From contig CBDBKM010000011.1 in NCBI GenBank assembly GCA_965206695.1, forward strand, positions 224,001-288,000: 64,000 nucleotides of DNA. Direction: 5' to 3'. Position 1 is the stretch's first letter, and each line of letters starts with the position of its first letter. This document shows positions 15,375 through 15,726 of this stretch, piece after piece. Made by a program: the position numbers and the translations under genes. The stretch is from Chlamydiales bacterium. GTDB taxonomy: Bacteria > Chlamydiota > Chlamydiia > Chlamydiales > JAAZZY01. The notes below the pieces were generated by a model. The model searched no databases, was not told where the DNA came from, and saw only the letters and a list, made by a program, of their open reading frames with translations.

Positions 15375-15396
15375 ATTCTCAGTTACTAAAATTTAT

Positions 15397-15689
15397 GACA
15401 ATTAAGCGAGACAACTCCTTGCTTTAGCATTAGGATGAGAGCGTCTCGATTAAAGTGTTGTTTCGTATTCGTGTTAATTTTCATATTTTGTATACTATTT
15501 CTATCTTTTAGATTTATCGATGGAATAGCCGGTAAGTTAAGCCTTTGGAGATCCTGTCAAACCCGGGGGGGGAGCATGGGTTGGTTGAAGACCGTAACAG
15601 TTCCTTTTTGGAAATTTTTATTGGGAAAGCCAAGCTTTGTTTCCCGAGCAGTGATAGGAATCACTTCCTTGAGGGTTAGGAGCTGTCAA
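15397..15689 (+). mobile_element. IS200/IS605-derived non-autonomous element (family 1, copy 2) with omegaRNA-like scaffold
   Basis: TTTAT|gacaattaagcgag left end; ends gaatcacttccttgagggttaggagctgTCAA; colinear with 56053-56324 (minus). Confidence 0.9.
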
Positions 15690-15726
15690 TGTGTAAGGCT
15701 TTTCTTCCCGATCAAGTGGTAGTCTA

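Follow-up and report, generated by a model that had tools for sequence, protein, structure and literature searches.

In Helicobacter pylori, miniIS605 is a non-autonomous element containing HPnc0580 (PMC6531487), an RNA that is listed as non-characterised (PMC8322730). Comparable elements have already been published as omegaRNA-bearing PATEs (Meers et al., 10.1101/2023.03.14.532601) and as standalone omegaRNAs (Altae-Tran et al., as described in PMC10691335), and they share with the element described here the lack of a protein gene, IS200/IS605 ends, and an omegaRNA expected to depend on TnpB in trans. The cryo-EM structure of the ISDra2 TnpB omegaRNA (PMC10097598) provides the scaffold plan onto which our element can be tentatively mapped: a 5' stem with a pseudoknot to the last right-end nucleotides, stems 2-4, and a guide taken from the flank. 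A retention mechanism for coding IS605 elements and omegaRNA-bearing PATEs was described by Meers et al. (10.1101/2023.03.14.532601), who also name TTTAT as a TAM, that of GstTnpB2. Because H. pylori IS608 TnpB was inactive in their assay, not every such system need work.

The element examined here lies near 15 kb of a 64,000-nt stretch of DNA, referred to as the window, from a chlamydial genome (G000 in coordinates) of 2.46 Mb and 35% GC. The genome encodes an Hc1 histone-like protein and is ridden with insertion sequences, including many IS630, IS4/5-like and IS605 transposase fragments. The Hc1 histone-like gene at 12015-12491 of the window contains a long lysine/alanine-rich tandem repeat. 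The element, 15397-15689 (293 bp without its TAM), is likely a decayed gene-less IS605 mini-element of the miniIS605/HPnc0580 type, one that probably moved with borrowed TnpA and is predicted to have encoded its own guide RNA for a TnpB supplied from elsewhere. MiniIS605 with HPnc0580 and omegaRNA-bearing PATEs are already known, and the 15-kb copy is a decayed further member. This copy is itself transposon debris, and its family is of modest importance.

Anatomy of the 15-kb element

The family to which the element belongs is called M1, and a second mini-element family sharing its left end is called M2. The features in the window are as follows.

15339..15379 (+): intrinsic terminator of the upstream yajC (terminator scan, 1 found versus 0.3 expected; yajC identified by Pfam)
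15392..15396 (+): TAM or target pentanucleotide TTTAT, host DNA to the left of the element (sequence; NTTAT, mostly TTTAT, precedes nearly all 115 genomic left ends)
15397..15447 (+): IS605 left end, a subterminal imperfect hairpin with a TTTA loop, starting GACAAT and of the type of the genome's old IS605 family (left-end comparison)
15448..15502 (+): M1-specific AT-rich spacer, predicted promoter region (genome search and leader alignment)
15491..15496 (+): -10-like box TATACT (aligns with TATAAT of Helicobacter minis)
15502..15689 (+): predicted omegaRNA scaffold, comprising a 5' hairpin (about 15516-15533), core, stem 3 and right-end hairpin, damaged in this copy (Rfam HPnc0580 and model R1)
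15562..15648 (+): stem-3b extension, or long-stem domain, with motifs AUG, GUAAAA and GAAAACCAA; the latter two read GUAACA and GAAAGCCAA in this copy (motif comparison)
15657..15689 (+): IS605 right end (hairpin and GCTGTCAA), with the plan of the local coding family (alignment)
15690..15709 (+): right flank TGTGTAAGGCTTTTCTTCCC, host DNA, predicted guide (sequence)
15723..16822 (-): IS630-type insertion, unrelated to the mini-element and about 33 bp to its right
13043..13317 (+): M2 mini-element with an M1-type left end, a different spacer, omegaRNA and right end, and no long stem (genome comparison and model R1)
56053..56329 (-): second M1 copy, TAM included; 3' strands of the scaffold and some of the right-end hairpin are lost through a 31-nt deletion (alignment)
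56330..57554 (+): young coding IS605 (tnpA reverse, tnpB forward) in which an inserted IS630-type element interrupts tnpB after 248 aa (ORF and Pfam reading)

The 15-kb copy has subterminal hairpins at both ends and is inserted 3' of a fixed 4-5 nt target; on inspection, its right end reads ...GAGCTGTCAA and ends at 15689. The M1 interior contains no ORF homologous to tnpA or tnpB, and the copies are dispersed, with differing flanks. Apart from short weak matches, the spacer occurs in this genome only in M1 copies. A TATACT box had been noted before the scaffold from the letters alone. The hexamer is present and is placed as in homologous elements, but a sigma-70 scan of 15300-15800 calls no promoter-like site (1.5 expected in shuffles), TATACT included. 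It is therefore described only as a -10-like hexamer, its support being position in homologous elements rather than consensus strength. Model R1 matches 15503-15662 with 111.9 bits, a match by construction, and the Rfam HPnc0580 model matches 15502-15603 with 21.8 bits, below its gathering threshold of 37. At gathering thresholds, Rfam gives no match in the entire window. The fold of this single copy (15515-15710) has a z score of -1.42, and 17 of 200 shuffles fold as well. The yajC terminator ends 12 nt before the TAM and likely limits read-through into the element. In one DNA sequencing run, which may be the source sample, the unique flanks of the copy were matched without differences at a depth of 2-4, and no piece crosses the insertion.

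Two small-peptide readings, both made by hand, were rejected. The M1 consensus has a 34-codon hydrophobic frame from an ATG in the left end, which indels break in several copies. In many lineages, a frame that reads M-G/S/R-W-x-x-x-V-K opens at the AUG of the long stem; it is broken in 4 of the 16 lineages listed, and its variation falls on first codon positions.

Long-stem relatives and two probable folds of stem 3b

The H. pylori miniIS605/HPnc0580 (RF02269) is, like M1, a gene-less IS605 derivative of about 290 bp in which the left end is followed by a short spacer with a -10 box, an RNA start about 6 nt past this box, a 5' hairpin, the GCCTTTGGAGA core, a long stem 3b, and the right end. 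Helicobacter minis align colinearly with M1 from the -10 box through the right end, spanning the promoter-leader, core and long stem 3b. Over its final 36 nt, the M1 consensus leader scores 30.5 against the H. pylori miniIS605 leader, compared with 14.1 +/- 3.9 for shuffles, none of 2000 being as high; against the local parents, the M1 leader gives p 0.205 (young family) and a weak p 0.0095 (old family). The two groups differ in their TAM and terminus (TTTAT and TCAA in M1, TTTAA-like and TTCAC in Helicobacter), in the longer spacer of M1, and in the decay of the M1 copies, the nine full ones having a mean pairwise identity of 83%. M1 also stays below the Rfam gathering threshold: four of nine M1 loci scanned have sub-threshold HPnc0580 matches, the best at 30.6 bits (E 0.014) against the required 37. 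M1 is thus homologous to elements of the HPnc0580 kind without formally belonging to RF02269. Some outside relatives exceed this threshold, with 83.3, 79.1 and 39.5 bits. ISDra2 differs from M1 in that its RNA overlaps the 3' end of tnpB and has a flexible stem 3b of 22 nt (PMC10097598); in M1 this stem takes up about 85 nt, and tnpB is lacking.

The long-stem motif was found at 94 loci outside this genome (38 + 2 + 54), which form 16 clusters at 85% identity; by our own reading of the sequences, three are Helicobacter-type and two are Sulfurovum-like. The 38 Helicobacter loci, one of them under a non-Helicobacter title, were retrieved with a pattern partly built on the HPnc0580 consensus and are thus partly matches by construction; a looser motif gave the 54 metagenome loci and the 2 IMG/VR loci. 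A 1182-bp contig under a Lysobacter title (L052) contains a Helicobacter-type miniIS605 and is probably contamination. At least 300 nt of upstream sequence is present at 82 of the 94 loci, and a left-end regular expression matches 64 of these 82, a figure that has no control and is not counted as evidence. The local TnpB matches none of the 38 and none of the 56 loci, and the local TnpA none of the 56; with the same TnpB query, Helicobacter TnpB scores E 1e-61 to 1e-66. A covariance model built from 18 sequences has matches in 10 of 150 other chlamydial genomes. Among 11 chlamydial loci inspected, four long-stem matches in two genomes are gene-less and two more lie at contig edges; the remainder comprise two short-stem matches behind tnpB, one short-stem gene-less mini, one gene-less locus with half of the domain, and one seemingly spurious match. 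The tnpB-coding elements of Helicobacter also give short model matches. Wherever context is available, then, the long-stem RNA is gene-less; the converse fails, as M2 and some M1 copies have no long stem. In a 28-locus cluster (L088-L139), a high-GC lineage, near-identical long-stem minis occur at many different flanks, some with several per contig; in that lineage the family looks recently active.

A scaffold abutting the right end, a 5' stem, a pseudoknot and a right-end hairpin are found both in the family consensus and in the outside lineages. RNAalifold analysis of 18 cross-lineage sequences gives compensatory changes in 9 of 17 pairs (39 compensatory cells, 95.1% of cells paired). The covariation score is reached by 0 of 500 shuffles and approached by no slid control, relatedness being uncorrected and the structure being derived from the same alignment. 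Read by eye, the predicted pseudoknot partners, the 5' hairpin loop and the last right-end bases, change together across lineages, with GGC or GAC facing GUC and GAA facing UUC; such a pseudoknot would agree with the ISDra2 architecture. A TA.a.T-like hexamer lies 10-21 nt before the hairpin in most lineages, often with TTG 16-18 nt further upstream, as counted without a shuffle control.

Besides its minimum-energy rod, the long-stem domain likely has a second fold, which joins the 7 nt ahead of the invariant AUG to the 7 nt that follow GUAAAA. Across 17 sequences (2 of 19 unparsed), 97 of 102 of these pairs are Watson-Crick, against a permutation mean of 75, with 0 of 20,000 permutations as high. 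A 3-bp stem closing a near-invariant 9-nt loop has 43 of 48 pairs versus 33.7 expected (16 sequences, 3 unparsed). Pairings of the rod fold also exceed permutations, at 76 versus 64.8 for A:D and 71 versus 62.6 for B:C (both 0 of 5000), with 38 of 5000 for X:Y; the C:D pairing of the two-arm fold, reached by 590 of 5000, is unsupported alone. The rod and the 5'-arm fold are mutually exclusive. The rod is favoured by 12-25 kcal/mol; for a transcript that stops after strand B, the best fold is the 5' arm. In these models, the two folds fit a co-transcriptional switch or a folding aid. The Rfam HPnc0580 model covers only the 5' 105 nt and ends at strand B, perhaps through processing or because of read length. 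When 14 loci, outside lineages included, were searched against Rfam to E 3, the long-stem domain matched no ribozyme or riboswitch; only HPnc0580 is detected there, and HgcC and sot0042 match weakly, nearer the right end.

The cross-lineage spread, the strong covariation and the second covarying fold together argue that the element layout was selected over deep time. The cross-phylum spread and the two-fold domain were not found in the literature passages searched. Those on HPnc0580 and stem 3b, mostly from open-access papers, contain neither a link between HPnc0580 and TnpB nor a description of a long-stem domain; likewise, a dedicated promoter-plus-long-stem family or a two-fold domain was not found in passages of the PATE and standalone-omegaRNA publications, whose supplements and extended figures may bear on this point.

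These comparisons allow a course of events to be proposed for M1. TnpA of the genome's older IS605 family would have spread M1 to TTTAT sites, and a promoter in the spacer would start a transcript near 15502-15503 that runs through the right end into the flank. TnpB acting in trans would load this scaffold-plus-flank RNA and cut the empty TTTAT-plus-flank site left by excision, upon which recombination or repair from the sister chromosome would restore the element. Because such retention restores the element itself, selection would be for its own survival and not for the host. Eleven of the 26 young coding elements keep a full tnpB ORF, and their core, right end and TAM are also those of M1, so loading in trans was plausible.

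More tentatively, miniIS605-type minis may be old, cross-phylum "satellite" transposons with their own promoter and a two-state stem-3b RNA domain. The 5' arm (strands A:B, framing AUG and GUAAAA) would fold first and later be displaced into the long rod, acting as a switch or protein-binding module that times the capture of TnpB from another element; HPnc0580 would then be the 5' half of such a guide RNA. We think this somewhat less probable than not. Should the two-fold stem-3b domain prove functional, TnpB guide RNAs would have a new regulatory module, HPnc0580, so far uncharacterised in H. pylori, would have a role, and the domain would mark a natural cargo insertion site in TnpB guides. 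The protein-free IS605 elements form an old lineage with a conserved promoter-plus-RNA design, more than leftovers, and natural intact examples make the role of standalone omegaRNAs testable.

The long-stem RNA could also be something other than a working guide, namely a decoy or regulator of TnpB, or the structure could act on the single-stranded DNA intermediate for TnpA. The domain occurs only in gene-less elements among the loci seen, its invariant loop nucleotides and two exclusive covarying folds exceed the needs of a passive linker, and G-U(T) pairs cannot separate RNA from top-strand DNA. We nevertheless regard such a role as unlikely. The 5' hairpin with its pseudoknot loop and the right-end hairpin, which TnpB is known to bind, show conservation and covariation; stem 3b, whose place the domain takes, is flexible in ISDra2 and can be dispensed with there (PMC10097598); and the positionally conserved -10-like box points to RNA.

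Origin of M1 and the local IS605 families

Three left-end seeds identify 115 related left ends in the genome, which by downstream sequence divide into 26 young elements with tnpA and tnpB, 45 old tnpA-type relics, 22 M1, 6 M2, and 16 others. M1 has its ends and TAM in common with the 26 young elements and the 45 old ones of coding type. Of the old family, to which the M1 left end corresponds, this genome shows only relics. In many old coding copies (e.g., C5:116385 and C3:175756), TATAAT occurs in the 3' end of tnpB a few bases before the 5' hairpin of the omegaRNA; this may be an internal promoter, and the young family does not have it.

The young coding family (1670 bp, tnpA plus tnpB) is a candidate source of both TnpA and TnpB in trans. 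The 367-aa tnpB ORF is kept in 11 of its 26 copies, and the copy translated in full has the RuvC D, E and D motifs and a zinc finger, as read by eye. The tnpA frame is open, with HVH and catalytic-Y motifs, and its start codon is uncertain. At the expected start (L076 1206-1637; window 56380-56800, minus strand), most copies have a TA-repeat tract in place of an ATG, and a 137-aa ATG frame exists in only 1 of the 26; this region could reflect an alternative start or slippage control. In the window, the second M1 copy (minus strand) and the young coding element (plus strand) stand head to head, and where their TAMs adjoin back to back there is a perfect 20-bp palindrome (56320-56339).

The sequence-only reading had described the interior of the 15-kb copy as colinear with the 56-kb copy and unlike the 13-kb copy. 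Alignment bears this out, as the 15-kb and 56-kb copies, both M1, match at 88% over 260 nt and an alignment with the 13-kb copy shows a different interior. The left end said to be common to the 15-kb and 13-kb copies is indeed shared by M1 and M2. Their right ends, taken to be identical as well, proved to share only GGAATC and GTCAA, with different hairpins; the right end of the 15-kb copy is of the type found in the genome's tnpA/tnpB-coding IS605 family. The M2 scaffold has nine matches in the genome (L077-L085), and tnpB was seen before none of them; the nuclease that would go with it therefore seems to be absent. The 13-kb M2 copy lies directly before an ORF that matches only the C-terminal part of a tRNA U5-methyltransferase.

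Local coding IS605 elements have the left end, scaffold core, right end and TAM in common with M1. They lack its 60-nt spacer and 85-nt extension, and their short stem 3b yields model R1 matches of 86-88 nt compared with 155-160 nt. Because the spacer and the stem-3b extension are absent locally and align with Helicobacter miniIS605, M1 was, on sequence grounds, most likely acquired ready-made and not formed by local deletion. The proposal that independently derived subfamilies converged on one layout thus holds in part: M1 and M2 are distinct and have one plan in common, which runs from the left end through a short, AT-rich spacer containing a -10-like box and the omegaRNA to the right end, but a local deletion origin of M1 is not supported.

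The same evidence bears on whether M1 is plain deletion debris, in which random internal deletions of local IS605 elements kept the ends and the RNA layout is meaningless. One-off deletion relics are certainly common in this genome (e.g., 211, 332, 342, 588, 1022, 1269, 1327, 1347 and 1354 bp), three 52-bp elements run from the left-end hairpin directly into the right-end hairpin, and the present M1 copies decay neutrally, as described below. This origin is nonetheless very unlikely and largely refuted for the M1 family: the spacer and long stem missing from local coding elements align with minis in other phyla, one left-end/spacer junction is common to 22 copies, and the structure covaries across lineages. 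The 52-bp fusions (C2:35815, C8:46176 and C10:430158) likely arose by recombination between similar hairpins. Three copies that combine the M1 promoter with the parent's short stem (C3:82769, C10:178201 and C10:434770) are likely recombinants, and two 184-bp M1 copies (C5:49570 and C5:94931) have a common scaffold-core deletion at a short repeat.

Decay of the local copies and their guides

M1 underwent one burst of copying in this genome, followed by neutral decay. In the 11 long M1 copies, the G/C-to-A/T rate is 0.130 versus 0.066 for the reverse, and at scaffold G-C pairs the wobble-keeping C>T changes (32) equal the pair-breaking G>A changes (34). Observed/expected substitutions in the scaffold are 1.07-1.24, with 1.08 at paired and 1.18 at unpaired sites. 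The left end and spacer, at 0.69 and 0.77, are less diverged than the scaffold, which could reflect ascertainment or some constraint. Among the nine full copies, shared substitutions number 47, compared with 43.4 +/- 5.8 under a star tree (p 0.30), and the highest pairwise identity is 88%, which argues against recent M1 transposition. The divergence of M1 left ends from their consensus (7.2%) resembles that of the old coding family (8.8%), and both therefore probably spread in one old burst. RNAalifold on the 11 local copies gives a covariation term of +0.6, with a compensatory change in only 3 of 37 pairs.

The M1 consensus folds with a z score of -5.1, and 10 of the 11 copies have scores above -1.7 (mononucleotide shuffles), the exception being C11:417702 at -3.9. 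None of the 11 keeps all eight motifs under strict tests, in which some of the failing changes may be tolerated. The 15-kb copy fails four of the eight, one through a 9-nt deletion: the damage affects the 5' hairpin with its pseudoknot loop, GUAAAA, the GAAAACCAA loop and a 3' strand of 9 nt, each altered or lost. Judged by these lesions, it is most likely non-functional. The sequence-only reading had argued for selection on the RNA over random deletion, naming scaffold decay without covariation as an outcome that would speak against it. Within this genome, that outcome is what is observed, with star-like divergence and as many pair-breaking as pair-keeping changes. The argument survives at the level of lineages, where the 18-sequence alignment covaries, and not for the present local copies, whose scaffolds decay neutrally.

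A dispersed guide repertoire had also been suggested. The flanks do differ from copy to copy, as insertion at different sites produces automatically, but next to TTTAT, matches to the M1 and M2 guides stay at chance level. When 99 right-end flanks were compared with the 19,856 TTTAT sites of the genome, the match distribution was that of random 20-mers. The best TTTAT-adjacent match of the 15-kb guide is 13 of 20 with a 6-nt run, at chance level, and the only 19 of 20 match belongs to the flank of a 52-bp end fusion that has no scaffold. The TAM and 14-nt seed of the 15-kb copy have no exact match in IMG/VR contigs. A DNA search of 40 relatives did not find the element in 39, and the sole match (33 nt, E 7.6e-4) is no real homologue. 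No match was obtained by blastn in a plasmid collection, M1-specific exact patterns gave none in metagenome or GTDB contigs, and the shared pattern gave none in viral contigs. Guides conserved intact with their targets across relatives, as in a host-domesticated system of TldR-like or defence type, were not found. A host-domesticated repertoire serving defence or gene control through resident TnpB, to which the distinct flanks, 11 full-length tnpB ORFs, near-identical scaffold core and common TAM might point, is thus very improbable given the random-level flank matches, the absence of exact IMG/VR matches, 0 of 11 long copies intact, and the failure to find the element in 39 of 40 relatives.

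The genome also contains a second, unrelated tnpB-only family (C10:335338, C8:165957, C13:71973 and C11:418982) that is about 39% identical to the main TnpB. Its aligned part is free of stops, its ends differ, and its 3' region is long and structured. GC-rich inverted copies at 12636-12908 and 59802-60105 of the window look similar.
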